A stretch of 21,318 bases of DNA from a virus (IMGVR_UViG_2603880150_000003), one strand, 5' to 3'; counted from the first letter of the stretch, positions 1,527-21,318 are shown. A program made the numbers and translations. Notes: generated by a model from the letters alone, not told the origin.

Positions 1527-2101
1527 CCAACTTAACTGAAACCAGGATGAAGTATATGCATATAAAGTTCACTTTGCCAAACTTCAGTATAAAAAACCAC
1601 ATAAAAAATAGGGTGTGATAAAAAACACCGTAACAATAAAGCAAAGGATTATAAATTCCGTTACAGTTACAAATGATACTCAAGAAACAATTCCTTAGGA
1701 AAAACTTATTTACAGCCAATAAGTAAGACACTTATATGATATCAAGTTTTCATAAAACATAACTAGGCTAAATAGCTGCGCCTAATACCGCTACACTTTT
1801 GCCAGCCCATATTTGCCTCCGGGTATTGACCCCTTCTCTACGCAACTTCAGTTCCCACCACCAACTTTGCGGCAGCTTTGTAGGATCAATGTCTAAAAGA
1901 ATAATGGTGACCGATAAGAAAACGACTGAATAACTGCAAATTTTCGCTCAAAACCTTCCTGTCAGATCCATAGCGAATCAAGTGCTGAATGTCACAGTAT
2001 CAAACAGAAAACAGTGACGATCTAACTCTTCAAGAATATTCTACGATTGTTCTGTTTAGGAAAAGCAAGGCGGGAAGTCGGGAGATAAGTCATTGATAAA
2101 G

Positions 2102-2163
2102 TGGCGGAGAGAGGGGGATTTGAACCCCCGGTAGAGTTGCCCCTACTCCGGTTTTCGAGACCG
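2102..2163 (-). other. Orphan 62-nt 3' fragment of tRNA-Ser(CGA) (serU-type), likely att-site remnant
   Basis: Reverse complement CGGTCTCGAAAACCGGAGTAGGGGCAACTCTACCGGGGGTTCAAATCCCCCTCTCTCCGCCA matches the 3' 62 nt of E. coli tRNA-Ser(CGA) including the CCA end; the match stops abruptly inside the anticodon stem, so no complete tRNA is present. Confidence 0.8.
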
Positions 2164-2906
2164 ATGATACAGAGTCGAAAAATCAAAGAGTTAAAAATTT
2201 TTCTTGGAATAAATGTCTTAAAATCGTACACGAAAAATCAATGAATTACATAACATTAAAGAAGAATATTCCAAGCCTTCTTGATGCTACCACCTGTTTT
2301 CAGGTGTCATTCAGACGTGATTTGCCCCAGATTGGGAAAGCACGCTTTTTTCTCAGCTATCGTCCTCTTATTTTGCCGTTACATTTCTTTTTGCACTCTA
2401 ATGATTAATTTACAATAATAATATCGGTAATTATTGAGTAATAATAAATTGATTATTGCAAATGTAATTTAATTCCATCTTCGCGTTATATTCCAATCTT
2501 TAATCTCCGCATGGAACAAGTTGCATGCGTGACTATATTAAGACAACTTATAACCACCAAAACATTTGCTTTGCAAGCAAAAACAGTGACCATTGACTCT
2601 AAGAAAATTCCGATCTATTGTTAGGGTCATCAAAGTTACTTAACAGTATTCCGAAATGAAAATACAAAGCAAGCTAATTGTCTTATTAAACATTATCATT
2701 GCATTTATATTATTTGAGCTTTTAGCTCAAAAATTTGGTTTGAGTACATTATTTTAAAGCAAGATAAACAATATCGGGCACTCTAGTTTTTATAATTAAC
2801 AATTAAACGTCCATAAAATGTTATTTACTTTTCTTCGCTATTGTCATATCTTAATATAGTGGCTTACGCCACTCTACTTTCATCACATTTTGTACGTTTA
2901 TGTACT

Positions 2907-2939
2907 CGCCATGAAGCTCTTTCATGGCGATTTTTTATT
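2907..2939 (+). terminator. Candidate intrinsic terminator (9-bp stem cgccatgaa/ttcatggcg, loop gctct, then attttttatt)
   Basis: Perfect inverted repeat followed by a T-run on the + strand, inside AT-rich non-coding DNA between the tRNA fragment and tfa. Confidence 0.3.
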
Positions 2940-3022
2940 CTTAATCCAAGAACATACTCCTTACCTATAGCAAAATCACTTTTTGAACAAAAGAATAACG
3001 TATTTAGGTAATCATTACGAAT

Positions 3023-3604
3023 TTACCCTATAGGTGCTACTGGCCATTCAATATCCGGTGCAGTTGTTGTATTAACACGGTTCAGCAACACCCGATACTT
3101 CTTCCAGGCTTCCAGCAACGAGGTTTCTTCCTCCGTTGCAATTTCCAGATCTGCAGCATCCTGAAGCGGCGCAATATGCTCACTGGCTACCTGCATCAGG
3201 CTGTTTTTTGTTTCTTCCGCCTCCCGGATCCGGAACAGTTTTTCTGCTTCTGCATCTTTCACCCAGGCTGTGCCGTTCCACTTCTGATATTCCCCTCCCG
3301 GCGACAACCAGGTAACATTTTCCGGTAACGGACCGAGTTCAGAAATAAATAACGCGTCGCCGGAAGCCACGTCATAAACCGTTTTACCCCGATGGTCTTC
3401 AACGAGATGCCACGATGCCTCATCACTGTTGAAAACAGCCACAAAGCCAGCAGGAATATCTGGTGGTGCAATATCGGTACTGTTTGCTGGCAGACCTGTA
3501 TGAGGCGGAATATATGCGTCACCTTCACCAATAAATTCATTAGTTCCGGCCAGCAGATTATAAATTTTTATGGTCCGTGGTTGTTCACTCATTCTGAATG
3601 CCAT
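3023..3604 (-). CDS. tfa: Tail fiber assembly protein Tfa (lambda Tfa-like)
   Basis: 193-aa translation [51 protein letters not shown].. is near-identical to lambda Tfa as recalled; start overlaps the stf stop by 1 nt. Confidence 0.9.
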
Positions 3605-6600
3605 TATGCAAGCCTCACAATATAGTTAAATGCGATGTTTTTGACGGTGTTTTCCGCGTTACCCGCAGCGTTAACGGTGATGGTATGTCCATGTGAGCCA
3701 ATCGCAACGGAGTGCGTATGAGCACCAATACCGACAGTATGTGCATGTGCGCCTGCGCTTGCAGCAGTGCCGGACAGCGAGTGGGTATGAGCACCATCTG
3801 ATGATGTCTTCCCTGCATTACGAGTCTGGCCACTACCGCTTGTTGTGCTCATAATCCCCGCGCTTAGATTTGAAATCGCAGTATAACCATTAGGAAAAAT
3901 GCTCGTGTTCGTGCCACCAAATGCACCGGAACTCTTGTGTTGGTGCGCACCGGCACTATTTGCTGTCCCGCTAATACTATGGGTATGTGCACCAGTGTTA
4001 TTCGTGGATTTGGTTCCGTAATCAAACGACGATGTGGTTTTCGTCCCCAAATCCGTACTGGATGCGCTGGCGCTGTGGGTGTGCGATTTAATGCCGTCCT
4101 GTTCCTGAGACAATACGGCACGACCACTGGCGGGCTTGCCCTTAATCGTCCAGCCACGCATATCAGGGATCACGCCTGACGGATAAGCAACTGCAAGTTT
4201 CGGGTATGCAGATTTGTCAAAAGTCTGCCCCTGCATCAGGGCATAGCCAGACGGAACGGTATCTGATGGCCACGGGATTGGTGCGCCGACTGGATAAAAC
4301 TCTGCAGGAGGATGAGCCGAGGTGTAAAGCTGCGCCCACGGCGACCAGTTTGCGTCGATCGTATCCCGTCGTGAACGAATAAATGCCGGAGCATGAGCAC
4401 CGCTTGTACCACTCCAGCCGATGAGTAACTCACCTTCGCCAACGGCTGTCATCCCTTTCAGGTGAATGATATTTCCATACGCTGTTGGATATCCGTTGTT
4501 ATACACCTCGTATAACTCAAGACCTGTTGCCCCCTGCGTATTGTCTGTCAGCGCGGTTACCCGACCTTTTGAAGCCAGATTAACTGATGATACTGCTGTT
4601 CCACCTGACGGTAATGCCCCAATCTCTGATGCCGTTGGCTTATTTCTGGAGTTATAGTCCCTTCGCCAGCCAGGTGAATAATCTGTTCCGTGATTAATAT
4701 AGGTAAACTGGGCGTTAGTTGTTCCACCACCAGTGGAGGTGGTCGGTGTGGTAATGCGGATCGTCATCGCTGACTTTATCCCCATTACTTCAATGACAGC
4801 TCCGGCGAGATGAATATTACCGCAGCCAGTATCAGTAATGATTTTATTATTGCCATAAGACCAGGAACCCTTGCACATCCAGTATGGATGGTTAAATGCT
4901 CCCTGAGAATCCAGCCACTCGATAAACTGTGCAGTCGTCCAGTTTCCTGTTGTTGTGCTTACTGACCCACCGAAGGCACGGCAGGCACCAATATTTTTCG
5001 TAAAGGTGTCTTTGCCAGGGATATCCGCACCGTTCTGATCTTTCTGCAGACGTTTCTCAGCATTGTCATTGGCTGCTTTTACTGCCTTTGGCGTTGCCGC
5101 CAGCGTTTCAGACGTGCTGTTGGTCGCGCTGCTTAGCTGGATTATCCCTTTCTGTGCTGTCGTTGCATCCTGTGCGGTGTATTTCCCGTTAGCCAGGTCA
5201 TACGCGGCCTTAACGGCTTTTGGTGTTGCCGCCAGTGACTCGGAAGTGCTGTTAGTCGCACTACTGAGCTGTACTATCCCCTTTTTCGTCGTGCTCGCAT
5301 CCTCAAGCGCCACGGCGGATGCAATATCCTCTGCCCGTTTTGCCGCTGTCTCAGCGCGCGTTGCTGCAGATTCCGCCGTACTTTTGCTCTGAGCTGCTGC
5401 CGTCGCACTACCAGCAGCCTCTGTCGCCTTCGTGGATGCCGTCGTGGCGCTGCCCTTCGCTGCTGACGCCTGTCTGGTCGCCTCATCTTTTGAAGCAGAC
5501 GCCGATGATGCCGATGACGCCGCCGAACTGGCGGACGATGCCGCTGCCGTTTTTGAGGATTCTGCACGGGTTTCCGAGGCTTTCGCGTTCGTTTCGGATG
5601 TCATCGCTGCGGATGCAGACCTCGCTGCTGCGCTGGCCTGTTCAGCGGCTTCGCCAGCCTTCGTTGTGGCTGTTGAAGCGGATGATGCGGCGCTTTCGGC
5701 CGATTTTCCGGCTGCGGTGGCACTGACTGAGGCCTGCCCGGCACTTGTTGACGCGGCACTGGCAGACGACGCAGCCGCTGTTTTTGAGCCTGCCGCAGCT
5801 GAGGCGCTCTGTCCCGCTGCCGTCTCAGAAGACCTGGCGTTCGTCTCGGACGTTTTTGCCGCCTTCGCGGAATTTCCTGCCGCCGTTGCCGAGGAAGCGG
5901 CACTACTGGCGCTTGATGATGCGTTCGTTTCTGATGATTTTGCCGCTTCTTTTGAGGCCGCCGCATCCCGGGCCGAGGTCGCAGCTTCTGATGCCTTCGT
6001 GGTCGCGGTGGATGCAGATGTGGCTGCTGATTGTTGTGACGCTGAAGCATTCGTTTCTGACGTTTTCGCCGCACCGGCACTGGTGGCCGCCGCGCTTTTT
6101 GAGGACTCTGCAGCGGCAGCACTTTTTGATGCTTCAGTGGCCTTTGTTGATGCCGTTCCTGCGCTGGAAGACGCTGACTGAGCCGACGACGCGGCCTGTC
6201 CGGCTGACGTGCTGGCTGCGCGTGCTGAGTCCGCAGCATCAGCCGCATGGGTTGCCGCCTCACGGGCTGATGTGCTGGCATCACTGGCTGACTTCTTCGC
6301 GGCTGCCGTGTTCTGTGCCACCGCGGACGCGTTACGCGCCACCTCTTCCACCATCAGTTCAAAACGGCGCAGTGCCTCAGGACGGGCATCATCCTCCGTC
6401 ATGGCACCGAGAAAATCATTCAGCGTACCGGGTTGAGAATCTTCATACACGGTGATGGTCCCGGCATGTGACGGCGGGAATCCTTCCACCAACAGAATAA
6501 CGCTGTACTGACCGTACTCCACATCCATGCTGTAACGCCCGGCTTCATCCGGATTCTCTGAGCCCACCGTGTTCACCACCACCGTGGTGCTGTTACGTCT

Positions 6601-6684
6601 GGCTTTCAGCTGAATGGTGCAGTTCTGTACCGGTTTTCCTGTGCCGTCTTTCAGGACTCCTGAAATCTTTACTGCCATATTCAC
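3604..6684 (-). CDS. stf: Side tail fiber protein Stf (StfR/lambda Stf-like), 1026 aa, with long Ala/Ser/Thr-rich region
   Basis: N-terminus [64 protein letters not shown].. matches Rac/lambda side tail fibers; contains tandem [27 protein letters not shown] motifs and a C-terminal His-rich GAHTHSxSGTA repeat region. Confidence 0.9.
5085..5290 (-). repeat. Tandem ~120-bp repeat inside stf encoding the duplicated SATNSTSE(S/T)[11 protein letters not shown] motif
   Basis: Two near-identical DNA blocks (about 5085-5165 and 5205-5285) are visible on the + strand; both translate on the - strand to the conserved tail-fiber motif. Confidence 0.6.
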
Positions 6685-8353: not shown

Positions 8354-8888
8354 ATCCCACGCCTTGCGCTGTGTGGTCAGGTATCAGTTCATCCAGCGCG
8401 GCTGCTTTGTTCATGGCTTTGATGATATCCCGTTTCAGGAAATCAACATGTCGGTTTTCCAGTTCCGGAAAACGCCGCTGCACCGACAGGGGGATCCCGT
8501 CGAGAATACTGGCAATTTCACCTGCGATCCGCGACAGCACGAAAGTACAGAATGCGGTTTCCACCACTTCAGCGGAGTCTCTGGCATTTTTCAGCTCCTG
8601 TGCGTCGGCCTGCGCACGCGTAAGTCGATGGCGTTCGTACTCAATAGTCCCTGGCTGGAGATCTGTCTCGCTGGCCTGCCGCAGTTCTTCAACTTCCCGG
8701 CGCAGCTTTTCGTTCTCAATTTCAGCATCCCTTTCGGCATACCATCTTATAACGGCGGCAGAGTCATAAAGCACCTCATTACCCTTGCCACCGCCTCGCA
8801 GAACGGGCATTCCCTGTTCCTGCCAGTTCTGAATGGTACGGATACTCGCACCGAAAATGTCAGCCAGCTGCTTTTTGTTGACTTCCAT
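8343..8888 (-). pseudogene. nu1: Terminase small subunit Nu1 (NohD-like), C-terminally truncated at a deletion junction
   Basis: MEVNKKQLADIFGASIRTIQNWQEQGMPVLRGGGKGNEVLYD.. matches lambda Nu1 up to ..[10 protein letters not shown], then diverges ([11 protein letters not shown]) where the sequence enters the J reading frame. Confidence 0.8.
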
Positions 8889-9834: not shown

Positions 9835-10128
9835 ATGAAAAAAATGTTGTTTTCTGCCGCTCTGGCAATGCTTATTACAGGATGTGCTCAACAGACGTTT
9901 ACTGTTGGAAACAAACCGACAGCAGTAACACCAAAGGAAACCATCACCCATCATTTCTTCGTTTCGGGAATTGGACAGGAGAAAACTGTTGATGCAGCCA
10001 AAATTTGTGGCGGCGCAGAAAATGTTGTTAAAACAGAAACCCAGCAAACATTCGTAAATGGATTTCTCGGTTTTATTACTTTAGGCATTTATACTCCGCT
10101 GGAAGCGCGTGTGTATTGCTCACAATAA
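9835..10128 (+). CDS. bor: Bor lipoprotein (serum-resistance moron)
   Basis: MKKMLFSAALAMLITGCAQQTFTVGNKPTAVTPKETITHHFFVSGIGQEKTVDAAKICGGAENVVKTETQQTFVNGFLGFITLGIYTPLEARVYCSQ matches lambda Bor; lipobox LITGC; antisense to the lysis genes as in lambda. Confidence 0.85.
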   Translation: MKKMLFSAALAMLITGCAQQTFTVGNKPTAVTPKETITHHFFVSGIGQEKTVDAAKICGGAENVVKTETQQTFVNGFLGFITLGIYTPLEARVYCSQ

Positions 10129-10159: not shown

Positions 10160-10621
10160 CTATCTGCACTGCTCATTAATATACTTCTGGGTTCCTTCCA
10201 GTTGTTTTTGCATAGTAATCAGCCTCTCTCTGAGGGTGAAATAATCCCGTTCAGCGGTGTCTGCCAGTCGGGGGGAGGCTGCATTATCCACGCCGGAGGC
10301 GGTGGTGGCTTCACGCACTGACTGACAGACTGCTTTGATGTGCAACCGACGACGACCAGCGGCAACATCATCACGCAGAGCATCATTTTCAGCTTTCGCA
10401 TCAGCTAACTCCTTCGTGTATTTTGCATCGAGCGCAGCAACATCACGCTGACGCATCTGCATGTCAGTAATTGCCGCGTTCGCCAGCTTCAGTTCTCTGG
10501 CATTTTTGTCGCGCTGGGCTTTGTAGGTAATGGCGTTATCACGGTAATGATTAACAGCCCATGACAGGCCGACGATGATGCAGATAACCAGAGCGGAGAT
10601 AATCGCGGTTACTCTGTTCAT
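10160..10621 (-). CDS. Rz: Spanin inner-membrane subunit Rz
   Basis: [85 protein letters not shown].. matches lambda Rz; ATGA overlap with the R stop. The listed ORF starts 4 codons earlier. Confidence 0.85.
10219..10401 (-). CDS. Rz1: Spanin outer-membrane lipoprotein Rz1, embedded in Rz in the +1 frame
   Basis: [60 protein letters not shown]: lipobox VVGC and proline-rich segment as in lambda Rz1. Confidence 0.75.
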
Positions 10622-11115
10622 TGCTGACCCCACAAACAGATTTCACGCTCAATCTCACGACGAGTCATGAGACCTTTCCATTGCTTACCGCCAGCATATG
10701 TCCAGCGACGTAGCTGATCACATGCGCCTTTAATATCACCCTGGTTTATTTTGCGAAGAAGCGTCGATGTTCTGAAATTGCCAGCACCCACGTTGTAGAC
10801 GAACGAGTAAAGAGCGCCGCGCGTTGTTTCCGGTATATCGACTTTGATGTACGGGTTAATTTGTCTGGCGACAGTGGCAAGGTCTTTATTCAGGAGGGCT
10901 TTGCACTCTGCTTCGGTATACGTTTTACCGGGAATGATGTCTTTTCCTGTATGCCCGTGACATACAGTCCATACACCAACTATGTCTTTGTAAGGATTAT
11001 GTCTCACACCTTCCAGACCATCGTTACCACTTGGGCCAGTGATTAATACAGATGCTATAGCAATAGCCCCGCCACCAATAGCAGCAGCAACAGCTTTTCG
11101 TAATGATGGAGGCAT
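10618..11115 (-). CDS. R: SAR endolysin (phage 21 R / RrrD-type lysozyme)
   Basis: 165 aa with N-terminal signal-anchor-release-like hydrophobic segment ([20 protein letters not shown]) and lysozyme-like core; unlike lambda R transglycosylase; follows the holin with overlapping stop/start. Confidence 0.85.
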
Positions 11116-11330
11116 TATCCACCTCTCGCAGCCTTGCGCTTATCTTCTTTAATCTTGAAATAAAGGTTTGTCAGGTACGTCAGCAGGCCAAATACCAGGC
11201 TACCCAGCACTCCAATTGCCGCCCACTGTGAGGGCGTGACTTTATCTAGCAGCTGTAAAAACCAGTACCCGGCACTACCTGCTGAGGTGCCATAGGCGAC
11301 ACCCGTTGTTAACTTATCCATGGATTTCAT
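11115..11330 (-). CDS. S: Holin, phage 21 S-type pinholin (EssD-like)
   Basis: 71 aa [71 protein letters not shown]; two TM segments and a charged C-terminus, matching S21. Confidence 0.85.
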
Positions 11331-11902: not shown

Positions 11903-13000
11903 ATGAAAAAATTAACAGTGGCAATTTCTGCTGTAGCTGCATCAGTACTGATGGCGATGTCTGCTCAGGCAGCTGAAATTTATAATAAAGACAGTAACAA
12001 GCTGGATCTGTACGGGAAAGTTAATGCTAAGCACTACTTCTCCTCTAATGATGCAGATGATGGTGATACTACTTATGCCCGTCTTGGCTTCAAAGGTGAA
12101 ACCCAAATCAACGATCAACTGACTGGTTTCGGTCAGTGGGAATATGAATTCAAAGGCAACCGCGCTGAATCTCAAGGCTCCTCCAAAGACAAAACCCGTC
12201 TTGCATTTGCAGGCCTGAAATTCGGTGACTACGGCTCCATCGATTACGGCCGTAACTACGGTGTAGCATACGACATCGGCGCGTGGACTGACGTCCTGCC
12301 AGAATTCGGTGGTGACACTTGGACTCAAACCGACGTGTTCATGACTCAACGTGCAACTGGTGTTGCAACCTATCGTAACAACGACTTCTTTGGTCTGGTT
12401 GATGGTCTGAACTTTGCTGCTCAGTACCAAGGCAAAAACGATCGTAGCGATTTCGATAACTACACTGAAGGTAACGGTGATGGCTTCGGTTTCTCTGCTA
12501 CCTATGAATACGAAGGATTCGGTATCGGTGCAACTTATGCGAAATCTGATCGTACCGACACTCAAGTTAATGCAGGGAAAATTCTTCCTGAAGTATTTGC
12601 TTCCGGTAAAAATGCAGAAGTTTGGGCCGCAGGTCTGAAATATGACGCTAACAACATTTACCTGGCCACTACCTATTCTGAAACCCAGAATATGACTGTA
12701 TTTGCTGATCACTTCGTTGCTAATAAAGCCCAAAACTTCGAAGCTGTTGCACAATATCAGTTCGATTTCGGTCTGCGTCCGTCCGTTGCTTACCTGCAAT
12801 CTAAAGGTAAGGATCTTGGAGTATGGGGCGATCAGGACTTAGTCAAATATGTTGATGTAGGTGCAACCTATTACTTCAACAAAAATATGTCTACTTTCGT
12901 TGATTACAAAATCAACCTGCTTGACAAAAATGACTTCACTAAAGCACTCAGTGTAAGCACTGATGACATCGTTGCTGTAGGTCTGGTTTACCAGTTCTAA
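11903..13000 (+). CDS. nmpC: Outer membrane porin NmpC/OmpD/Lc (OmpC family), apparently intact
   Basis: [23 protein letters not shown] signal peptide, then [23 protein letters not shown].. and C-terminal ..VAVGLVYQF, the general-porin signature; SD aaaggg upstream. The listed ORF starts 20 codons upstream but 11903 fits the signal peptide. Convergent with Q, as for nmpC in DLP12. Confidence 0.9.
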
Positions 13001-13016
13001 TCTGATTACGAAAAAG

Positions 13017-13050
13017 ATATGTTGCGGGAGGCTTTGCCTCCCCAACATAT
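13017..13050 (-). terminator. Strong hairpin just after the nmpC stop; on the - strand followed by aucuuuuucg (candidate late-strand terminator, possibly tR')
   Basis: About 15-bp stem (atatgttgcgggaggc / gcctccccaacatat, one bulge) with ttt loop; rc of 13008-13016 gives a U-run after the stem on the - strand. Confidence 0.4.
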
Positions 13051-13137
13051 AAGTGGCTCCCTCAAGCCACTTCCTTTAGGAGCACAACCTTGCTTCTAAC
13101 TATATAAACCTTCTGTTATATATTACCCTTTATTTTT

Positions 13138-13162
13138 GGGGGCGTTGCAACGCCCCATTTTT
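13138..13162 (+). terminator. Intrinsic terminator for nmpC
   Basis: Perfect palindrome gggggcgttgcaacgcccc followed by atttttaataattttt on the + strand. Confidence 0.55.
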
Positions 13163-13189
13163 AATAATTTTTAGTAAACAACTGGCATA

Positions 13190-13573
13190 TTAATTAGAGT
13201 TATTAACAACGATATCCATCTCTAACCGGATATCTAATGCCATTAACATCCCTTCAATTATGCCCTCAGCCTTCTGTAACCTTTTCCCGATATAACCATC
13301 AGAGCAGCAATGCTTACCTGCCAGTGACATGAATGTCATACCGACTACATAATAATCTACTAATAAATCGTGCAAATCGCTGTTGTTCTTTTTCAGACGG
13401 GCCATGCACCCGCAAATAATCATCGCGTCATCGTCACAACATTGCGGGCGAGATTTTACTTTTGAAGTAATTAATCCCTTAAAACCGGCGGCAATGGACG
13501 ACCAGGTCACATCTTCATGATTATTAGCCGCCCACGCTCCCCAACGCTCAAGAACCATCTGAATATCACGCAT
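13190..13573 (-). CDS. Late-gene antiterminator Q (QuuD / phage-82-type Q-like), 127 aa
   Basis: [62 protein letters not shown].. with Cys-rich motif; sits between rusA and the lysis genes; SD GGAG precedes the MRDIQ start (the listed ORF begins at an upstream TTG). Confidence 0.8.
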
Positions 13574-13658
13574 CAACTTACTCCACAAAAATCAGACCAG
13601 AACGCCAATTACAAGCAAAAATCAACAAAACAGTATTAGTTGATTGTTATCTCTGACT

Positions 13659-13796
13659 TCATACTCCTGCTCCTGTCAGGGTTTTGGCGTAATTCTTCAG
13701 TATTCGGTAATCGGTCAAAACAGAACCAGGAAAACGATATAAGCGCAGGCGCATCCAGCGGTGGCGAAGACGTTCTGCCACATAAAACTCAAACAT
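13659..13796 (-). CDS. Small ORF (45 aa), YlcG-like by position between rusA and Q
   Basis: ATG overlaps the rusA stop (TGATG); translation [45 protein letters not shown]. Below the ORF-track length cutoff; identity inferred from synteny only. Confidence 0.4.
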   Translation of the reverse strand: MFEFYVAERLRHRWMRLRLYRFPGSVLTDYRILKNYAKTLTGAGV

Positions 13797-14158
13797 CATT
13801 CATTCCCCATTTCGGTGATGGTCAGTTCCAGCCTCCCACCTTTGGTAACAGGCATCTTCACAACGCGGTAATCAACGACCTGAGCATCATCCAGCCAGAA
13901 ACCTGCTTTAGTGAGTGCGTCAAAAGCGGCTTTTTGCAGATTATCCAGGTCACGGCGACGGCGATCCGGCATGTGGCACTCAATGCGGATTTTCACAGGG
14001 ATAGCCAGGCCGATATCCAGCATTGCGTTTTTAATGATTCTGGCGACGTTATCGCGGTATGCCTGCCCCTCTGCGCTGACGTGCGTGCGCCCGCGATTAT
14101 GGCGGTAATAGCGATTATTGCTCGGAGGCCAGGGTAATGTGATGCTGTAGGTATTCAC
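13796..14158 (-). CDS. rusA: Holliday junction resolvase RusA
   Basis: [120 protein letters not shown] matches RusA; GTG start. Confidence 0.9.
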
Positions 14159-14364
14159 GCCTTAATAATCCCCTCTTTCAGCCACATAACCTGTGTTTTC
14201 GCCATACCTTCCAGCGCGCATTCTTTTGCATATGCAGCATCGACTTGCTTGGCATGCCCTTTACCGGCAATCTTCTGTATGCGCTAAACCTAGATAGAAT
14301 CCACTCTGTGCACATTGAAGCCCGCTCTATGCTTCCTTTCAGGTATTGAAGGGATTGAGATGGG
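14156..14364 (-). pseudogene. ybcO-like (DUF1364) gene remnant, frameshifted/internally deleted
   Basis: The last ~40 codons (..[29 protein letters not shown]) match the YbcO C-terminus and its stop overlaps the rusA start, but upstream the frame is broken by stops and the space between ninX and rusA (~207 bp) is too short for a full gene. Confidence 0.5.
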
Positions 14365-14712
14365 CTAAGCATTATTGGCCTCCTGCATCAGGAGAAAGAC
14401 AATCATGGCGGCGCGGAGAGGTCTGGTATCAAATATTGGGCTTACGCCTTTTGCATCCACACACCATTCAGTTAACTGGTCTAAGATAGAAATCCTGTAT
14501 TTCTCAATAATCGGCCATGAAGCGCTCGGATCATTGCAGTAATCAGGCAAATGATTTAATGGCTCAAAAGTTGTATCAGCATTTCCGTAATACCATTTGT
14601 TGGTGTTATTCCCTGATGTTTCCGGTTTACTTGCCCAAAGGCCTTTAAAAATTATGTCTCCTACCATTCTGTTAATTTCAAAATCACTTAACTGTGAATA
14701 ATCCATTGTCAT
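14365..14712 (-). CDS. nin-region protein, NinX/DUF2591-like (family name from memory)
   Basis: [34 protein letters not shown]..; ATGA overlap with the ninE stop at 14709-14712 supports this start rather than the upstream one in the ORF track. Confidence 0.6.
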
Positions 14713-14885
14713 TTCCTCGCACGATATCTTAGCCACCGGATATCCCACAGGTGAGCTGTGTAATTGAAGGTTTTTACGTCAGATTCTTTTGGGATTGGCT
14801 TGCGTTTATTTCTGGAGCGTTTCGTTGGAAGGTATTTGCAGTTTTCGCAGATGATGTCGGTGAAACTTCGTCGCTGTCGCCTCAT
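14709..14885 (-). CDS. ninE: NinE
   Basis: 58 aa [58 protein letters not shown] resembles lambda/DLP12 NinE; ATGA overlap with the upstream Dam fragment stop. Confidence 0.75.
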
Positions 14886-15229
14886 GCCGCCCTCCTGACG
14901 CCCTGCCCGATCGCCATCAATGCCGCTTTGGATACGGTAGTAAACATCCGTCGAGGACTGATGAACAGTCGCCAAATCAGCAGCATGGAGCCTTTGCTGT
15001 TTTCCTTCTTCTCCAACCCTGTCGATGGTTCGATAAAATTAATCCGTCCATCAGTGATAATGCGAACTTCGTCGACACTCTCCAGAGCCTTGCTGAACCA
15101 TCCGACTGACATATCCTCTGGCACAAGCATAACTACCGTCTGTCGCTGTTGTATGCACTGCTCAGCGGCTTTTTCCACCCACGGCCTGATATTGCTGTAC
15201 GGTGGGTTATTCCAGATTGCACCGTGGCT
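14882..15229 (-). pseudogene. Phage Dam-type N6-adenine DNA methyltransferase, 3' fragment (contains the NPPY motif)
   Basis: Minus-strand translation from 15229: [71 protein letters not shown]..; catalytic NPPY motif present, no N-terminal domain; an in-frame stop lies immediately upstream (15230-15232). Confidence 0.7.
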
Positions 15230-15230
15230 T

Positions 15231-15542
15231 TACGAGTATTGCCGGAAGCGAGGCCTGTATCCGGATGCGGAGTCTTATCCGTGGAAATCAAACGCGCACT
15301 ACTGGCTGGTTACCAACCTGTATCAGAACATGCGGGCCAATGCGCTTACTGATGCGGAATTACGGCGCAAGGCTGCCGATGAACTGACCTGTATGACAGC
15401 GCGAATTAACCGTGGTGAGACGATACCTGAACCAGTAAAACAACTTCCTGTTATGGGCGGTAGACCTCTAAATCGTGCACAGGCTCTGGCGAAGATCGCA
15501 GAAATTAAAGCTAAGTTCGGACTGAAAGGAGCAAGTGTATGA
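15231..15542 (+). pseudogene. P: Replication protein P, C-terminal ~104 codons only
   Basis: YEYCRKRGLYPDAESYPWKSNAHYWLVTNLYQNMRANALTDAELRRKAADELTCMTARINRGETIPEPVKQLPVMGGRPLNRAQALAKIAEIKAKFGLKGASV matches the lambda P C-terminus; the preceding 160 codons of the listed ORF are antisense to ninE/dam and unrelated to P. Confidence 0.8.
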
Positions 15543-15829
15543 CGGGCAAAGAGGCAATTATTCATTACCTGGGGACGCATAATAGCTTCTGTGCGCCGGA
15601 CGTTGCCGCGCTAACAGGCGCAACAGTAACCAGCATAAATCAGGCCGCGGCTAAAATGGCACGGGCAGGTCTTCTGGTTATCGAAGGTAAGGTCTGGCGA
15701 ACGGTGTATTACCGGTTTGCTACCAGGGAAGAACGGGAAGGAAAGATGAGCACGAACCTGATTTTTAAGGAGTGTCGCCAGAGTGCCGCGATGAAACGGG
15801 TATTGGCGGTATATAGAGTTAAAAGATGA
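15539..15829 (+). CDS. ren: Ren
   Basis: MTGKEAIIHYLGTHNSFCAPDVAALTGATVTSINQAAAKMARAGLLVIEGKVWRTVYYRFATREEREGKMSTNLIFKECRQSAAMKRVLAVYRVKR matches lambda Ren; ATGA overlap with the P stop. Confidence 0.85.
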   Translation: MTGKEAIIHYLGTHNSFCAPDVAALTGATVTSINQAAAKMARAGLLVIEGKVWRTVYYRFATREEREGKMSTNLIFKECRQSAAMKRVLAVYRVKR

Positions 15830-15902
15830 CCATCTATATTACTGAGCTAATAACAGGCCTGCTGGTAATCGCAGGCCTTTTTATTTGGGGGAGAGGGAAG
15901 TC

Positions 15903-16343
15903 ATGAAAAAACTAACCTTTGAAATTCGATCTCCAGCACATCAGCAAAACGCTATTCACGCAGTACAGCAAATCCTTCCAGACCCAACCAAACCAATCGT
16001 AGTAACCATTCAGGAACGCAACCGTAGCTTAGACCAAAACAGGAAGCTATGGGCCTGCTTAGGTGACGTCTCTCGTCAGGTTGAATGGCATGGTCGCTGG
16101 CTGGATGCAGAAAGCTGGAAGTGTGTGTTTACCGCAGCATTAAAGCAGCAGGATGTTGTTCCTAACCTTGCCGGGAATGGCTTTGTGGTAATAGGCCAGT
16201 CAACCAGCAGGATGCGTGTAGGCGAATTTGCGGAGCTATTAGAGCTTATACAGGCATTCGGTACAGAGCGTGGCGTTAAGTGGTCAGACGAAGCGAGACT
16301 GGCTCTGGAGTGGAAAGCGAGATGGGGAGATCGGGCTGCATGA
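15903..16343 (+). CDS. ninB: NinB (Orf-family recombination mediator)
   Basis: MKKLTFEIRSPAHQQNAIHAVQQILPDPTKPIVVTIQERNRSLDQNRKLWACLGDVSRQVEWHGRWLDAESWKCVFTAALKQQD.. matches lambda NinB; SD gagggaag upstream. Confidence 0.9.
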   Translation: MKKLTFEIRSPAHQQNAIHAVQQILPDPTKPIVVTIQERNRSLDQNRKLWACLGDVSRQVEWHGRWLDAESWKCVFTAALKQQDVVPNLAGNGFVVIGQSTSRMRVGEFAELLELIQAFGTERGVKWSDEARLALEWKARWGDRAA

Positions 16344-16708
16344 CTATCAAATCAAATACGCCAGCACACGACAAGGACTGCTGGCAAACGCCGCTTTGGC
16401 TTTTTGATGCACTGGATATTGAGTTTGGATTCTGGCTGGATTCGGCAGCGAGCGACAAAAATGCTCTGTGTGCTCACTGGCTAACTGAGGCCGACGACGC
16501 GCTCAATTCTGAGTGGGTACACAAAGCATCTCCTGTTGAGTTAAGAACGAGTATTGAGATGGCACATAGCCTTGCTCAAATTGGAGTCAGGTTTGTGCCA
16601 ATACCAGTAGAAACAGACGAAGAATTTCATACGTTAGCCGCATCCCTTTCACAAAAGCTGGAAATGATGGTGGCGAAAGCAGAAGCAGATGAGAGAGACC
16701 AGGTATGA
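16340..16708 (+). pseudogene. Dam-type methyltransferase 5' fragment (62 codons, DCWQTP motif) fused in frame to an early-left small ORF (possibly lambda orf63-like)
   Basis: MTIKSNTPAHDKDCWQTPLWLFDALDIEFGFWLDSAASDKNALCAHWLTEADDALNSEWVH is the N-terminal half expected upstream of the NPPY fragment at 14882-15229; after His62 the sequence (KASPVELRTSIEMAHSLAQIG..) is unrelated to Dam. ATGA overlap with the ninB stop. Confidence 0.65.
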
Positions 16709-16784
16709 CAACCACTGAATGCATTTTTCTGGCAGCGGGCTTCATATTCTGTGTGCTTATGCTTGCCGACATGGGACTTGTTCA

Positions 16785-17000
16785 ATGACACCTCAGCAAG
16801 AAAACGCCCTTCGCAGTATTGCCCGTCAGGCTAATTCTGAAATCAAAAAAGCCAGACAGCAGTTTCCGGATAAAAACGTCGATGACATTTGCCGTAGCGT
16901 ACTGAAGAAGCACCGCGAAACGGTAACGCTGATGGGATTCACACCGACTCATTTAAGCCTGGCGATCGGCATGTTAAACGGCGTCTTTAAGGAGCGATGA
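16785..17000 (+). CDS. Small early-left ORF (71 aa), lambda orf61-region-like
   Basis: MTPQQENALRSIARQANSEIKKARQQFPDKNVDDICRSVLKKHRETVTLMGFTPTHLSLAIGMLNGVFKER; assigned by position upstream of the TraR-like ORF and ea22; start chosen at the internal Met of the listed ORF. Confidence 0.45.
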   Translation: MTPQQENALRSIARQANSEIKKARQQFPDKNVDDICRSVLKKHRETVTLMGFTPTHLSLAIGMLNGVFKER

Positions 17001-17098
17001 ACATGAAAAGCAAAATCATCAGGGAGCTACAGGCTCCTTTTTTATTATTCGCATTCACCCTCAAGCGTATTAACCAACAATTCAGGGATTAATGGAAG

Positions 17099-17320
17099 AT
17101 GGCAGACATCATTGATTCAGCATCAGAAATCGAAGAATTACAGCGCAATACAGCAATAAAAATGCGTCGTCTGAACCACCAGGTTATATCTGCCACTCAT
17201 TGTTGTGAGTGTGGCGATCCCATAGATGAGCGAAGACGCCTGGCCGTTCAGGGCTGTCGGACTTGTGCAAGTTGCCAGGAAGATCTGGAGCTTATCAGTA
17301 AACAGAGAGGTTCGAAGTGA
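17099..17320 (+). CDS. TraR/DksA-family C4 zinc-finger protein (lambda Orf73-like)
   Basis: 73 aa with CCECGDPIDERRRLAVQGCRTCASCQ four-Cys motif typical of TraR/DksA C4 zinc fingers; ATGA overlap with ea22. Confidence 0.65.
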   Translation: MADIIDSASEIEELQRNTAIKMRRLNHQVISATHCCECGDPIDERRRLAVQGCRTCASCQEDLELISKQRGSK

Positions 17321-17865
17321 GCGAAATTAACTCTCAGGCACTGCGTGAAGCGGCAGAGCAGGCAATGCATGACGACTGGGGATTTGACGCAGACCTTTTC
17401 CATGAATTGGTAACACCATCGATTGTGCTGGAACTGCTGGATGAACGGGAAAGAAACCAGCAATACATCAAACGCCGCGACCAGGAGAACGAGGATATTG
17501 CGCTAACAGTAGGGAAACTGCGTGTTGAGCTTGAAACAGCAAAATCAAAACTCAACGAGCAGCGTGAGTATTACGAAGGTGTTATCTCGGATGGGAGTAA
17601 GCGTATTGCTAAACTGGAAAGCAACGAAGTCCGTGAAGACGGAAACCAGTTTCTTGTTGTTCGCCATCCTGGGAAGACTCCTGTTATCAAGCACTGCACT
17701 GGTGACCTGGAAGAGTTTCTGCGGCAGTTAATCGAACAAGACCCGTTAGTAACTATCGACATCATTACGCATCGCTATTACGGGGTTGGAGGTCAATGGG
17801 TTCAGGATGCAGGTGAGTATCTGCATATGATGTCTGACGCTGGCATTCGCATCAAAGGAGAGTGA
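17317..17865 (+). CDS. ea22: Ea22
   Basis: 182-aa translation MSEINSQALREAAEQAMHDDWGFDADLFHELVTPSIVLELLDERERNQQYIKRRDQENEDIALTVGKLRVELETAKSKLNEQ.. matches lambda Ea22 as recalled, in lambda-like position. Confidence 0.8.
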   Translation: MSEINSQALREAAEQAMHDDWGFDADLFHELVTPSIVLELLDERERNQQYIKRRDQENEDIALTVGKLRVELETAKSKLNEQREYYEGVISDGSKRIAKLESNEVREDGNQFLVVRHPGKTPVIKHCTGDLEEFLRQLIEQDPLVTIDIITHRYYGVGGQWVQDAGEYLHMMSDAGIRIKGE

Positions 17866-18056
17866 GATCGGTTTTGTAAAAGATAACGCTTGTGAAAATG
17901 CTGAATTTCGCGTCGTCTTCACAGAGATGCCAGAGTCTGTAGTGTCAGATGATGACCGTACTCAAACATCGGGTTGAGTATTATCTTACTGTTTCTTTAC
18001 ATAAACATTGCTGATACCGTTTAGCTGAAACGACATACATTGCAAGGAGTTTATAA

Positions 18057-18338
18057 ATGAGTATCAATGAGTTAGAGTCTGAGCAAAAAGATTGGGCGTT
18101 ATCAATGTTGTGCAGATCCGGTGTCTTGTCTCCATGCAGACATCACGAAGGTGTTTATGTAGATGAAGGTATAGATATAGAGTCGGCATACAAATATTCC
18201 ATGAAGGTTTATAAGTCTAATGAAGACAAATCCCCATTCTGCAATGTGCGAGAAATGACTGATACCGTGCAAAATTATTATCACGAGTACGGTGGAAACG
18301 ATACTTGCCCTCTCTGTACAAAACATATAGATGATTAA
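18057..18338 (+). CDS. ea8.5: Ea8.5
   Basis: 93-aa ORF MSINELESEQKDWALSMLCRSGVLSPCRHHEGVYVDEG.. between ea22 and xis, same size and position as lambda ea8.5. Confidence 0.75.
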   Translation: MSINELESEQKDWALSMLCRSGVLSPCRHHEGVYVDEGIDIESAYKYSMKVYKSNEDKSPFCNVREMTDTVQNYYHEYGGNDTCPLCTKHIDD

Positions 18339-18413
18339 ACCCAATATTACATAACAATCCTCGCACTCGCGGGGATTTATTTTATCTGAACTCGCTACGG
18401 CGGGTTTTGTTTT

Positions 18414-18566
18414 ATGGAGATGATAAATGCACTTCCGAGTCACAGGAGAATGGAATGGAGAGCCATTCAACAGAGTTATCGAAGCGGAGAACATCAACGA
18501 CTGCTACGACCACTGGATGATATGGGCGCAGATAGCACATGCAGACGTAACCAATATTCGAATTGA
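18414..18566 (+). CDS. Small ORF (50 aa) between ea8.5 and xis
   Basis: ATG at 18414, stop at 18564-18566; translation MEMINALPSHRRMEWRAIQQSYRSGEHQRLLRPLDDMGADSTCRRNQYSN. Lambda has an unnamed small ORF at this position, but coding status here is uncertain. Confidence 0.3.
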   Translation: MEMINALPSHRRMEWRAIQQSYRSGEHQRLLRPLDDMGADSTCRRNQYSN

Positions 18567-18585
18567 AGAACTGAAAGAACACCAA

Positions 18586-18606
18586 GCCGCCTGATGGCGG
18601 TTTTTT
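18586..18606 (+). terminator. Candidate intrinsic terminator upstream of xis
   Basis: Short GC stem (ccgcc/ggcgg, loop tgat) followed by tttttt. Confidence 0.4.
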
Positions 18607-18633
18607 CTTGCGTGTAATTGCGGAGACTTTGCG

Positions 18634-18852
18634 ATGTACTTGACACTTCAGGAGTGGAACGCACGCCAGCGACGCCCAAGAAGCCTTGAAACAGTTCGTC
18701 GATGGGTACGCGAGTGCAGGATATTCCCTCCTCCGGTTAAGGATGGAAGAGAGTATCTGTTCCACGAATCAGCGGTAAAGGTTGACTTAAATCGACCAGT
18801 AACAGGTAGCCTTTTGAAGAGGATCAGAAATGGGAAGAAGGCGAAGTCATGA
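18634..18852 (+). CDS. xis: Excisionase Xis
   Basis: MYLTLQEWNARQRRPRSLETVRRWVRECRIFPPPVKDGREYLFHESAVKVDLNRPVTGSLLKRIRNGKKAKS matches lambda Xis (72 aa); overlaps the int start. Confidence 0.9.
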   Translation: MYLTLQEWNARQRRPRSLETVRRWVRECRIFPPPVKDGREYLFHESAVKVDLNRPVTGSLLKRIRNGKKAKS

Positions 18853-19900
18853 GCGCCGGGATTTACCCCCTAACCTTTATATAAGAAACAATGGATATTA
18901 CTGCTACAGGGACCCAAGGACGGGTAAAGAGTTTGGATTAGGCCGAGACAGGCGAATCGCAATCACTGAAGCTATACAGGCCAACATTGAGTTATTTTCA
19001 GGACACAAACACAAGCCTCTGACAGCGAGAATCAACAGTGATAATTCCGTTACGTTACATTCATGGCTTGATCGCTACGAAAAAATCCTGGCCAGCAGAG
19101 GAATCAAGCAGAAGACACTCATAAATTACATGAGCAAAATTAAAGCAATAAGGAGGGGTCTGCCTGATGCTCCACTTGAAGACATCACCACAAAAGAAAT
19201 TGCGGCAATGCTCAATGGATACATAGACGAGGGCAAGGCGGCATCAGCCAAGTTAATCAGATCAACACTGAGCGATGCATTCCGAGAGGCTATAGCTGAA
19301 GGCCATATAACAACAAACCCGGTCGCAGCCACTCGCGCTGCAAAATCAGAGGTAAGGAGATCAAGACTTACGGCTGACGAATACCTGAAAATTTATCAAG
19401 CAGCAGAATCATCACCATGTTGGCTTAGACTTGCAATGGAACTGGCTGTTGTTACCGGGCAGCGAGTTGGTGATTTATGCGAAATGAAGTGGTCTGATAT
19501 CGTAGATGGATATCTTTATGTCGAGCAAAGCAAAACAGGCGTAAAAATTGCCATCCCAACAACATTGCATGTTGATGCTCTCGGGATATCAATGAAGGAA
19601 ACACTTGATAAATGCAAAAAGATTCTTGGCGGAGAAACCATAATTGCATCTACTCGTCGTGAACCGCTTTCATCCGGCACAGTATCAAGGTATTTTATGC
19701 GCGCACGAAAAGCATCAGGTCTCTCCTTCGAAGGGGATCCGCCAACCTTTCACGAGTTGCGCAGTTTGTCTGCAAGACTCTATGAGAAGCAGATAAGCGA
19801 TAAATTTGCTCAACATCTTCTCGGGCATAAGTCGGACACCATGGCATCACAGTATCGTGATGACAGAGGCAGGGAGTGGGACAAAATTGAAATCAAATAA
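18830..19900 (+). CDS. int: Integrase Int (lambda-type tyrosine recombinase)
   Basis: 356 aa MGRRRSHERRDLPPNLYIRNNGYYCYRDPRTGKEFGLGRDRRIAITEAIQANIELFSGHKHKPLTARINSDNSVTLHSWLDRYEKILASRGIKQKTL.. near-identical to lambda Int; 3' end points at the att core. Confidence 0.95.
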   Translation: MGRRRSHERRDLPPNLYIRNNGYYCYRDPRTGKEFGLGRDRRIAITEAIQANIELFSGHKHKPLTARINSDNSVTLHSWLDRYEKILASRGIKQKTLINYMSKIKAIRRGLPDAPLEDITTKEIAAMLNGYIDEGKAASAKLIRSTLSDAFREAIAEGHITTNPVAATRAAKSEVRRSRLTADEYLKIYQAAESSPCWLRLAMELAVVTGQRVGDLCEMKWSDIVDGYLYVEQSKTGVKIAIPTTLHVDALGISMKETLDKCKKILGGETIIASTRREPLSSGTVSRYFMRARKASGLSFEGDPPTFHELRSLSARLYEKQISDKFAQHLLGHKSDTMASQYRDDRGREWDKIEIK

Positions 19901-19954
19901 TGATTTTATTTTGACTGATAGTGACCTGTTCGTTGCAACAAATTGATAAGCAAT

Positions 19955-19987
19955 GCTTTTTTATAATGCCAACTTAGTATAAAAAAG
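19955..19987. other. Prophage-host att junction (int-proximal); 15-bp lambda core GCTTTTTTATACTAA on the - strand at 19973-19987
   Basis: ..gttgcaacaaattgataagcaatgcttttttataatgccaacttagtataaaaaagc matches the lambda P arm and core as recalled; the following aggc.. matches the bacterial arm (CTGCTTTTTTATACTAA.. in reverse complement). Confidence 0.8.
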
Positions 19988-20034
19988 CAGGCTTCAACGG
20001 ATTCATTTTTCTATTTCATAGCCCGGAGCAACCT

Positions 20035-21318
20035 GTGAACACATTTTCAGTTTCCCGTCTGGCGCTGGCATTGGCTTTTGGCGTGACGCTGACCGCCTGT
20101 AGCTCAACCCCGCCCGATCAACGTCCTTCTGATCAAACCGCGCCTGGTACCTCTTCTCGCCCGATTCTGTCGGCAAAAGAAGCGCAGAATTTCGATGCTC
20201 AACACTATTTTGCATCCCTGACACCAGGTGCTGCAGCGTGGAATCCTTCCCCGATTACCCTGCCTGCGCAACCTGACTTTGTTGTCGGCCCGGCGGGCAC
20301 TCAAGGTGTAACGCATACCACGATTCAGGCGGCGGTAGATGCGGCAATTATCAAGCGTACCAACAAGCGCCAGTATATTGCCGTGATGCCTGGTGAGTAT
20401 CAGGGAACGGTATATGTCCCTGCCGCTCCGGGTGGAATTACTCTGTACGGTACAGGTGAAAAACCGATTGATGTGAAGATTGGGCTTTCCCTTGATGGTG
20501 GCATGAGCCCTGCCGACTGGCGTCACGACGTCAACCCGCGCGGCAAATATATGCCAGGTAAACCAGCGTGGTATATGTACGATAGCTGCCAGAGCAAACG
20601 CAGCGACAGTATCGGTGTTCTCTGCTCTGCGGTCTTCTGGTCACAAAACAATGGCCTGCAACTGCAAAATCTGACCATCGAAAACACGCTGGGCGATAGC
20701 GTAGATGCAGGTAACCATCCGGCGGTGGCACTGCGTACTGATGGTGACCAGGTACAGATTAACAACGTTAACATTCTCGGTCGTCAGAACACCTTCTTTG
20801 TCACCAACAGCGGTGTGCAGAACCGTCTGGAAACAAATCGTCAGCCGCGTACGCTGGTGACCAACAGCTACATTGAAGGGGATGTGGATATCGTTTCTGG
20901 TCGCGGCGCAGTGGTGTTCGATAACACCGAATTCCGCGTGGTGAACTCACGTACTCAGCAAGAAGCGTATGTGTTTGCACCGGCTACGCTGTCCAACATT
21001 TACTACGGTTTCCTCGCCGTAAACAGCCGTTTCAATGCTTTCGGTGATGGTGTGGCGCAACTGGGCCGCTCGCTGGATGTTGATGCCAATACCAACGGTC
21101 AGGTGGTGATCCGTGATAGCGCCATCAACGAAGGTTTTAACACGGCTAAACCGTGGGCCGATGCGGTGATCTCTAATCGTCCGTTTGCGGGTAATACCGG
21201 CAGCGTAGATGATAACGACGAAATACAGCGCAATCTGAATGACACTAACTACAACCGCATGTGGGAATACAATAACCGCGGCGTGGGTAGTAAAGTGGTT
21301 GCAGAGGCGAAGAAGTAA
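20035..21318 (+). CDS. ybhC: YbhC, outer-membrane lipoprotein of the pectinesterase/acyl-CoA thioesterase family (host gene next to attB-lambda)
   Basis: 427 aa, lipoprotein signal MNTFSVSRLALALAFGVTLTAC, translation matches E. coli YbhC as recalled; higher-GC chromosomal-type sequence. Confidence 0.9.
   Translation: MNTFSVSRLALALAFGVTLTACSSTPPDQRPSDQTAPGTSSRPILSAKEAQNFDAQHYFASLTPGAAAWNPSPITLPAQPDFVVGPAGTQGVTHTTIQAAVDAAIIKRTNKRQYIAVMPGEYQGTVYVPAAPGGITLYGTGEKPIDVKIGLSLDGGMSPADWRHDVNPRGKYMPGKPAWYMYDSCQSKRSDSIGVLCSAVFWSQNNGLQLQNLTIENTLGDSVDAGNHPAVALRTDGDQVQINNVNILGRQNTFFVTNSGVQNRLETNRQPRTLVTNSYIEGDVDIVSGRGAVVFDNTEFRVVNSRTQQEAYVFAPATLSNIYYGFLAVNSRFNAFGDGVAQLGRSLDVDANTNGQVVIRDSAINEGFNTAKPWADAVISNRPFAGNTGSVDDNDEIQRNLNDTNYNRMWEYNNRGVGSKVVAEAKK

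Follow-up and report, generated by a model that had tools for sequence, protein, structure and literature searches.

The window examined here, a stretch of 21,318 nucleotides (nt) catalogued as IMGVR_UViG_2603880150_000003, carries a lambdoid prophage, and the question raised by this locus is what became of the immunity, replication and recombination genes of that prophage. The window was found to be a 100% match to Escherichia coli F3_13_1_3 (NZ_CP074754.1, 3184985-3206302). The element is inserted between ybhB/bioA on one side and ybhC on the other, which is the lambda attachment site (att-lambda), and is about 20.2 kb long, compared with 48.5 kb for lambda. It is very probably a cryptic, non-inducible and non-replicating lambdoid prophage whose central early region was lost by illegitimate recombination, with a leftover block of 1291 bp rejoined in the inverted orientation. 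Judged from its alignments, the element is a combination of a lambda-type int-xis-b-region arm and a DLP12-type nin-rusA-Q-porin-lysis-bor-nohD arm, DLP12 being the cryptic prophage of E. coli K-12.

Loss of the immunity, replication and Red module

A tblastn search was carried out with 43 lambda proteins against the whole window. Matches were obtained for int, xis, ea8.5, ea22, orf61, orf63, ren, ninB, ninE, Rz, bor, stf and tfa, and for residues 1-170 of Nu1, 320-815 of J, 146-206 of lom and 130-233 of P. The match at 15228-15539 is all that is retained of P. No match at E<=1 was found in the window for exo, kil, cIII, ea10, ral, sieB, N, rexA/B, cI, cro or O, and bet, gam and cII gave chance-level matches only (E 0.08-1).

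All 51 open reading frames (ORFs) of at least 40 amino acids (aa) in the region from 12.8 to 19.9 kb were then scanned with Pfam. The families identified were Q, RusA, NinX, NinE, Dam (twice), Phage_lambda_P, NinB, DUF1382, TraR zinc finger, Ea22, Ea8.5, Xis and Int, and none of these ORFs matched HTH_3/Cro/CI, S24 peptidase, CII, N, Rep_O, YqaJ/exo, RecT/Bet or Gam. For the rest of the window the best 25 of 34 families were listed, the other nine all having E>5e-5; among the matches listed, helix-turn-helix (HTH) domains occur only in an AraC regulator (774-1526) and in transposase fragments of the insertion sequence (IS) type IS3. The lambda-type operator consensus gave four scattered matches with three mismatches each, against 1.25 expected, with no cluster and none in the region. 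Iteron-like repeats were absent from 14.6-17.1 kb. Neither nut, oop nor any other phage RNA was found by Rfam in the window; the sole Rfam match, the candidate small RNA IS009 (3063-3261, minus strand, 227 bits), lies inside the tail-fibre assembly gene.

The DNA that remains can be assigned without gaps. Positions 12934-14244 align to DLP12, 14245-15228 to the nin region of the prophage of E. coli ECCHD184, 15229-16343 to lambda 39970-41084 and 16520-19988 to lambda 31193-27724, and 16344-16519 is assigned to dam nt 1-180. All bases between 12.9 and 20.0 kb are thus explained by homology, which leaves no space for a hidden module. The lost interval is equivalent to lambda 31194-39969 (8.8 kb) and holds orf60a, exo, bet, gam, kil, cIII, ea10, ral, sieB, N, pL/oL, rexAB, cI, pR/oR, cro, cII, O with ori, and the codons for P aa 1-129.

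A preliminary description of this DNA had listed cI, cro, cII, N, O, the P N-terminus, exo/bet/gam and kil/cIII as missing, and the tblastn, Pfam, operator and Rfam results bear this out. In the domain searches for repressor, Cro, N, O and P across the window, only P aa 130-233 was recovered, and neither a CI/Cro-type HTH gene nor operator repeats came to light. The same description had counted the recombination module as missing as a whole. This holds for Red and Gam, but the recombination functions NinB and RusA are retained.

The inverted block and its two joints

By blastn, the segment 15229-16343 is the only one that runs in the forward direction of lambda. All other lambda-homologous segments are reversed, namely 16520-19988, Q, rusA, ninE, Rz, bor, Nu1 and J. 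The stretch 15229-16519, with the order P' (the P fragment, aa 130-233)-ren-tR2-ninB-dam (nt 1-180), is a 1291-bp inverted block that had been overlooked in the preliminary description. There, the P 3' fragment was placed at the edge facing the early-left genes; it is actually the far end of the inverted block, and the two true novel joints lie between 15228 and 15229 and between 16519 and 16520 (Table 1).

Both joints interrupt dam. Joined head to tail, its two halves restore the complete 528-nt gene found in many E. coli prophages, with no more than 1 nt missing or doubled. At junction 1 the sequence reads GTGGC-TT-TACGAG, with an overlap of 2 nt (TT) and a T run that is one T longer than in either parent. 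Junction 2 is blunt, GAGTGGGTA being followed directly by CACAAAGC with zero microhomology, and it yields an in-frame fusion of dam codons 1-60 to orf63 codons 2-63 (ORF 16340-16708, plus strand). A second chimeric ORF of 263 aa (14751-15542, plus strand) runs from the antisense of ninE and the dam C-terminal fragment in frame into the P C-terminus. No evidence points to expression of either predicted chimera.

Among 5426 complete E. coli genomes, both joints were found base for base in only two, F3_13_1_3 and AH21, the latter differing from F3_13_1_3 by two IS3-family insertions in ea8.5. No IS is present at either joint; both are direct gene-to-gene fusions. The ends of the block carry no inverted repeat longer than TTAC/GTAA (4 nt).

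Several routes to these joints were considered and rejected. Rearrangement by an IS was set aside since the joints have no IS and the IS copies of AH21 lie elsewhere, in ea8.5. An IS3-family element suspected at P 39972 in strain Z0117EC0005 turned out to be at lambda 39941. Action of lambda Int on secondary att sites was rejected as the joints have no similarity to the att core, and a hairpin at the dam break was rejected on a folding z of -0.5 to -0.8, which indicates no significant structure. An exact 10-nt repeat, ACGAGTATTG, was observed at 15232-15241 and 16547-16556, one copy lying within the block at 3 nt from junction 1 and the other past junction 2 by 27 nt. The pair would have been an inverted repeat before the flip, and its chance odds were roughly estimated by hand at about 4e-4. 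No consistent model of inversion or template switch could be built on it.

Table 1. Features of the prophage and its joints, with positions in the window
Feature	Position	Strand	Basis and remarks
Nu1 (lambda 699) fused to J (lambda 16486)	8380..8383		crossing inside GGTA shared by both parents; ~15.8 kb of head/tail genes removed
essD-rrrD-rzpD lysis cassette, intact	10160..11330	-	annotation; Pfam holin, lysozyme, Rz, Rz1; 96.5% identical to DLP12
quuD, Q-type late antiterminator, intact	13190..13573	-	RefSeq annotation; Pfam Phage_antitermQ E=4e-53; 98% identical to K-12 DLP12
rusA Holliday-junction resolvase, intact	13796..14158	-	annotation; Pfam RusA E=2e-22
dam C-terminal fragment, phage N6-adenine methyltransferase, nt ~181 to 528	14882..15228	-	matches intact ECCHD184 dam to stop; annotated pseudogene
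Junction 1	15227..15230		dam nt 180/181 (minus strand) to P at lambda 39970-39972 (plus strand)
P replication protein 3' fragment, aa 130-233	15229..15542	+	blastn, lambda 39970-40283 forward; tblastn; Pfam Phage_lambda_P; inverted relative to Q/nin genes
ren, intact, inverted	15539..15829	+	97.9% aa identity to lambda Ren
tR2-like intrinsic terminator within inverted block	15855..15878	+	terminator scan; between ren and ninB as in lambda
ninB (Orf recombination mediator), intact, inverted	15903..16343	+	100% aa identity to lambda NinB; Pfam E=2e-54
dam N-terminal fragment, nt 1-180, inverted	16340..16519	+	identical to intact dam up to nt 180
Junction 2	16519..16520		dam nt 180 to lambda 31193, first base after orf63 start codon
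Early-left b-region genes, collinear with lambda 31193-28860	16520..18852	+	98.6% nt identity, no indel; tblastn; Pfam
Lambda-type integrase, intact	18830..19900	+	98.9% aa identity over 356 aa
attL core GCTTTTTTATACTAA	19974..19988	-	adjoins ybhC and int; exact lambda att core

Relatives, origin and recurrent breakpoints

Three sets of known remnants were compared with the element. DLP12 has likewise lost its central early region, so that truncated genes face each other, exoD' (minus strand) abutting peaD' (plus strand), where peaD' is the P C-terminus and begins at the same nucleotide as in the window, lambda 39972. Both elements share the rusA-ylcG-quuD-porin-essD-rrrD-rzpD-bor-ylcI-nohD module at 96.5-98% nt identity, and both have lost the terminase and head genes. 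They differ in that DLP12 lies at argU with intD, its P'-ren block is collinear, its nmpC is broken by IS5 where the porin gene of the window is intact, and it has ybcN/ybcO and an emrE-ybcK-L-M insert where the window has ninB-dam-ninX. The element of the window has a lambda-type Int (98.9%) and is located at att-lambda instead of at argU with intD; it is a relative or a hybrid and not DLP12 itself.

The lambda-B prophage of E. coli B (REL606, BL21), an earlier described defective element (PMC4395058), occupies the same chromosomal site with the same int-xis-attL arm, at 99.1% identity over 18351-21318. It also has no immunity, replication or Red genes, and its early-left genes abut a lysis-gene remnant. 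However, it is 12.1 kb long, has another, non-DLP12 right arm (terminase small subunit, acyltransferases) and no P'-ren-ninB-dam block.

The prophages of FG92-1, ECCHD184, ML35, BS74R-D and MLI110 form the third set, collinear remnants at att-lambda with the same nin-rusA-Q backbone and a shared DUF1364 pseudogene. The immunity region was lost through a different deletion in each, and none of them is inverted, in contrast to the window. ECCHD184 is collinear (cII-O-P-ren-ninB-dam-ninE-ninX-DUF1364'-rusA-ylcG-quuD); it lost int'-cro through IS1 and kept cII-O-P. FG92-1 has the order orf63-orf60a' joined to P' (from ~39704)-ren-ninB-dam, with orf60a fused to P39704, and its P'-ren-ninB-dam(1-180) stretch is 99.8% identical to the inverted block. 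In ML35, orf60a is joined to the same dam nucleotide at which the gene is broken in the window. Such 'grounded' prophages have been described in reviews (PMC6379469).

On these comparisons, the simplest route would start from an ancestor like FG92-1, collinear and already deleted, with the order ...dam-ninB-ren-P' joined to orf60a'-orf63..., and would take one local event, a 1291-bp flip with a loss of ~395 bp. A fragment of ~1.7 kb would be freed by breakage at two points, dam nt 180/181 and the orf63 start codon, would lose ~0.4 kb from one end and would then religate in reverse. The same product would result if an inversion came first and a deletion next to it came second. A full-length phage as ancestor would need three breaks over 10 kb. 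On either route the joints, which overlap by 0-2 nt, arose by illegitimate recombination. Inheritance of the P' end from a K-12-type joint of exo' to P' was considered but gained no support; this joint occurs in 306 of the 5426 genomes, apparently in the K-12 lineage, and F3_13_1_3 has one P' copy only.

Some points weigh against this account. The order and number of events cannot be recovered, as the DNA that separates an FG92-like from a full-length ancestor has been deleted, and each statement about expression made below is deduced. Neither joint is a perfect cut-and-flip: junction 1 has gained one T, and junction 2 is without the TG expected from a crossing at TA. Finally, the dam and P breakpoints fall within 2 nt of breakpoints in the unrelated prophages of ML35 and K-12 (DLP12), a coincidence that random breakage does not predict.

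Such reuse is not limited to these two sites. A single TA in orf60a (lambda ~31322, CCGGG-TA-GGCGCG) serves as the joint of 18 different fusions; the window has lost this site and retains the neighbouring sequence from 16520 onward. The fusions occur in prophages at three att sites, att-lambda, argU and thrW (loci L004, L007, L008, L010-L013, L018, L032, L066, L072, L076, L096, L098, L135-L137 and L141-L149). Sixteen of the 18 retain the orf63 side, fused to dam, ninB, P39704, P~40230, O, ren, one of two ybcN sites or one of eight others; the other two retain the exo side and represent the K-12 DLP12 type and one further type. Across 116 IMG/VR contigs, seven joints without an IS were found in the 600 nt upstream of the orf60a site, every one of them exactly at the TA. 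The break at dam nt 180 is shared by the window with ML35 and YZ_2_2, both joined to orf60a at lambda ~31322, the break at P 39972 is common to the window and K-12 DLP12, and one ybcN site is reused in LR-64-1 and MLI110. This reuse of TA breakpoints across lineages suggests a site-preferring break or rejoining process.

It is possible, though somewhat doubtful, that both the loss and the flip came from a site-preferring activity that repeatedly prunes lambdoid prophages at TA within GGTA/TACC; this would concern the mechanism only and is compatible with the element being a cryptic remnant shaped by illegitimate recombination. Candidates would be a nuclease whose cuts leave self-complementary TA ends, a recombinase that crosses over within a 2-bp TA, or a quasi-palindrome at which the DNA breaks. 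In addition to the reuse of sites, GGTA/TACC surrounds the crossing TA at 13 of 19 partner sites, against a background of 14% (binomial 1e-7), and a further partner outside this tally (IMG/VR contigs L144, L145 and L147) has it as well; the joint of Nu1 to J in the window also crosses within GGTA. Every combination of orientations was seen among the joints, which is what palindromic TA ends should give, and one arm of a quasi-palindrome, GGGTAGGCG-N10-CGTCTACTCC, contains the orf60a site.

Against such an activity, no enzyme has been identified, and the motif was recognised post hoc, after the data had been inspected. RusA cuts 5' of CC, only at four-way junctions and not in duplex DNA (PMC1636454). 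It is encoded in all these remnants and would fit a cut between TA and CC, but its restriction to four-way junctions makes the link speculative. Five partner sites lack the motif, four of which are explained by ordinary TAG(G) microhomology. The window joints are themselves imprecise (+1 T, -2 nt), with junction 2 not at TA, and some of the reuse may reflect joints spread by homologous recombination, for example the fusion of P39704 to orf60a, which is found at both argU and att-lambda. The broader proposal that the module loss seen here is one case of a sequence-targeted pruning which hits lambdoid prophages of E. coli at identical nucleotides across many lineages and several att sites, with ends rejoining in any orientation, is more tentative still, and we regard it as rather unlikely.

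Other explanations of the recurrent sites were also tried. Targeting of TTAC in the manner of IS608 was rejected, the crossing being inside TA and not after TTAC. Mimicry of an IS3 terminal repeat (TGATCYTACCCA, from IS3C in K-12) was discarded, as only dam, ybcN and orf60a are similar to it and it would place the crossing 7 nt into the repeat. IS3-family elements with ends beginning TGAACCGCCCCGGG were observed 5 nt and 451 nt upstream of the orf60a hotspot in IMG/VR contigs L091 and L085, and P or ren is occupied by IS3-family copies in several variants of DLP12, among them those of K-12, FT130 and Z0117EC0005. In an IMG/VR scan for alternative dam joints, the pattern was also matched by a common dam allele, and a scan of metagenomes yielded three loci only.

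The remaining alternatives fare much worse. Mosaicism is high in lambdoid immunity regions and some repressors are not easily recognised, so that an unrecognised, non-homologous module could in principle have replaced immunity and replication in the same interval. This is very improbable, as the span from 12.9 to 20.0 kb has no unassigned DNA, being aligned throughout to lambda, DLP12, the ECCHD184 nin region or dam, and no ORF of at least 40 aa in it carries an HTH or replication-initiator domain. Equally hard to credit is that a site-specific recombinase flips the 1.3-kb block in a programmed manner, as a phase-variation switch. The sharply defined ends of the inversion and the Int encoded 2.3 kb away would suit such a switch, but the 4-nt end repeats and the dissimilarity of the joints to the lambda att core do not, and no invertase domain is among the Pfam matches listed for the window ORFs. 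Moreover, dam was destroyed by the inversion, which came with a deletion, so that flipping the block back would not restore a functional state, and a single orientation was seen with these joints in the 5426 genomes. An assembly artefact had been named in the preliminary description as a possible refutation, and assembly errors in repeat-rich prophage regions can give inverted segments with novel joints. A mis-joined or mis-oriented contig nevertheless has next to no credibility: both joints recur in complete genomes that were sequenced independently, one of bovine origin from the USA (F3_13_1_3) and one from Canada (AH21), and F3_13_1_3 has a single match to either half of the junction-1 query and hence no second copy of dam or of this part of P for a mis-join.

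Remaining functions and cargo genes

With CI/Cro and the operators, N/nut, O, the P N-terminus and ori all gone, the element should have neither lambdoid immunity nor replication. The statement in the preliminary description that it can neither maintain lambdoid repression nor replicate itself is supported on this ground, from the confirmed absences and lambda biology. N antitermination, Red/Gam functions and virion assembly would be missing as well. The head and tail morphogenesis genes are reduced to Nu1 aa 1-170 fused to J at aa 320 and J fused to lom at aa 146, with A absent and all head genes gone. The fusion of J (lambda 17936) to lom (lambda 19398), at about 6930, shows no TA crossing.

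The late genes had also been described as uncoupled from early-operon control. As pR is lost, Q is indeed detached from the early operon, but the genes are probably host-controlled rather than silent. According to a published account (PMC7918800), the SRRz/Rz1 lysis operon of DLP12 possesses a regulatory region of its own and is under the control of a Q-type antiterminator, RpoE and Hha. The Q-porin-essD-rrrD-rzpD segment is 96.5-98% identical to DLP12, and 'uncoupled' therefore probably means host-controlled; as reported for DLP12, Q and the lysis cassette would be drivable only by local promoters under host control. Promoter-like sites are depleted in 11-19 kb (5 found versus 13.2 expected), and none lies upstream of the nin-Q block.

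On the other side of the block, the early-left arm contains orf63 (codons 2-63), orf61, a TraR-type zinc finger gene (17099-17320), ea22 (17317-17865), ea8.5 (18057-18338), a lambdap35-like ORF and xis (18634-18852). Both int and xis are present with their flanking att cores, Int and Xis being 98.6-98.9% identical to lambda, but would have lost pL and the cII-dependent pI. The partner core at attR has one mismatch and lies 224-238 bp before the window start. In the attR region (locus L001, 3758-3974; window -242 to -26, thus outside the window) the P arm is 86% identical to lambda, compared with about 99% for attL, int and xis, so the two prophage ends have different histories and the efficiency of excision is uncertain.

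Several further genes were observed in the rest of the window. An intact porin gene of the OmpC/NmpC type (11903-13000, plus strand), which is disrupted by IS5 in K-12 and ML35, lies between Q and the lysis genes, and an iss/bor serum-resistance lipoprotein gene (9835-10128, plus strand) comes next after Rz. The tail-fibre gene (3604-6684, minus strand; 1026 aa) has only patchy similarity to lambda stf, and its central part reaches a GC content of 0.61, against 0.34-0.50 in most of the window. Between the AraC-family regulator gene and tfa, 1.5 kb of AT-rich DNA (1527-3022, GC 0.34-0.37) has no annotated gene, and its short ORFs have no Pfam match among the matches listed.

The locus is thus an ordinary decayed lambda-type prophage, a condition well known among cryptic lambdoid prophages of E. 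coli, to which the inverted block adds a small new twist. The att-lambda element of F3_13_1_3 should be annotated as a cryptic remnant with no immunity, replication or particles; the P' fragment and the chimeric ORFs are pseudogenes, as is dam, which is both split and inverted. The intact genes for Q, holin, endolysin and spanin are most plausibly a domesticated cassette under host control, as in DLP12, and the porin and iss/bor genes are cargo that is likely more important to the host than the phage genes. If the sequence-targeted pruning considered above were true, prophage domestication would be driven by a fragile quasi-palindrome, or by a nuclease or recombinase that is dedicated or has a strong site preference, and confirmation of the recurrent breakpoints would point to a specific way in which bacteria disarm lambdoid prophages, in addition to random decay and selection.

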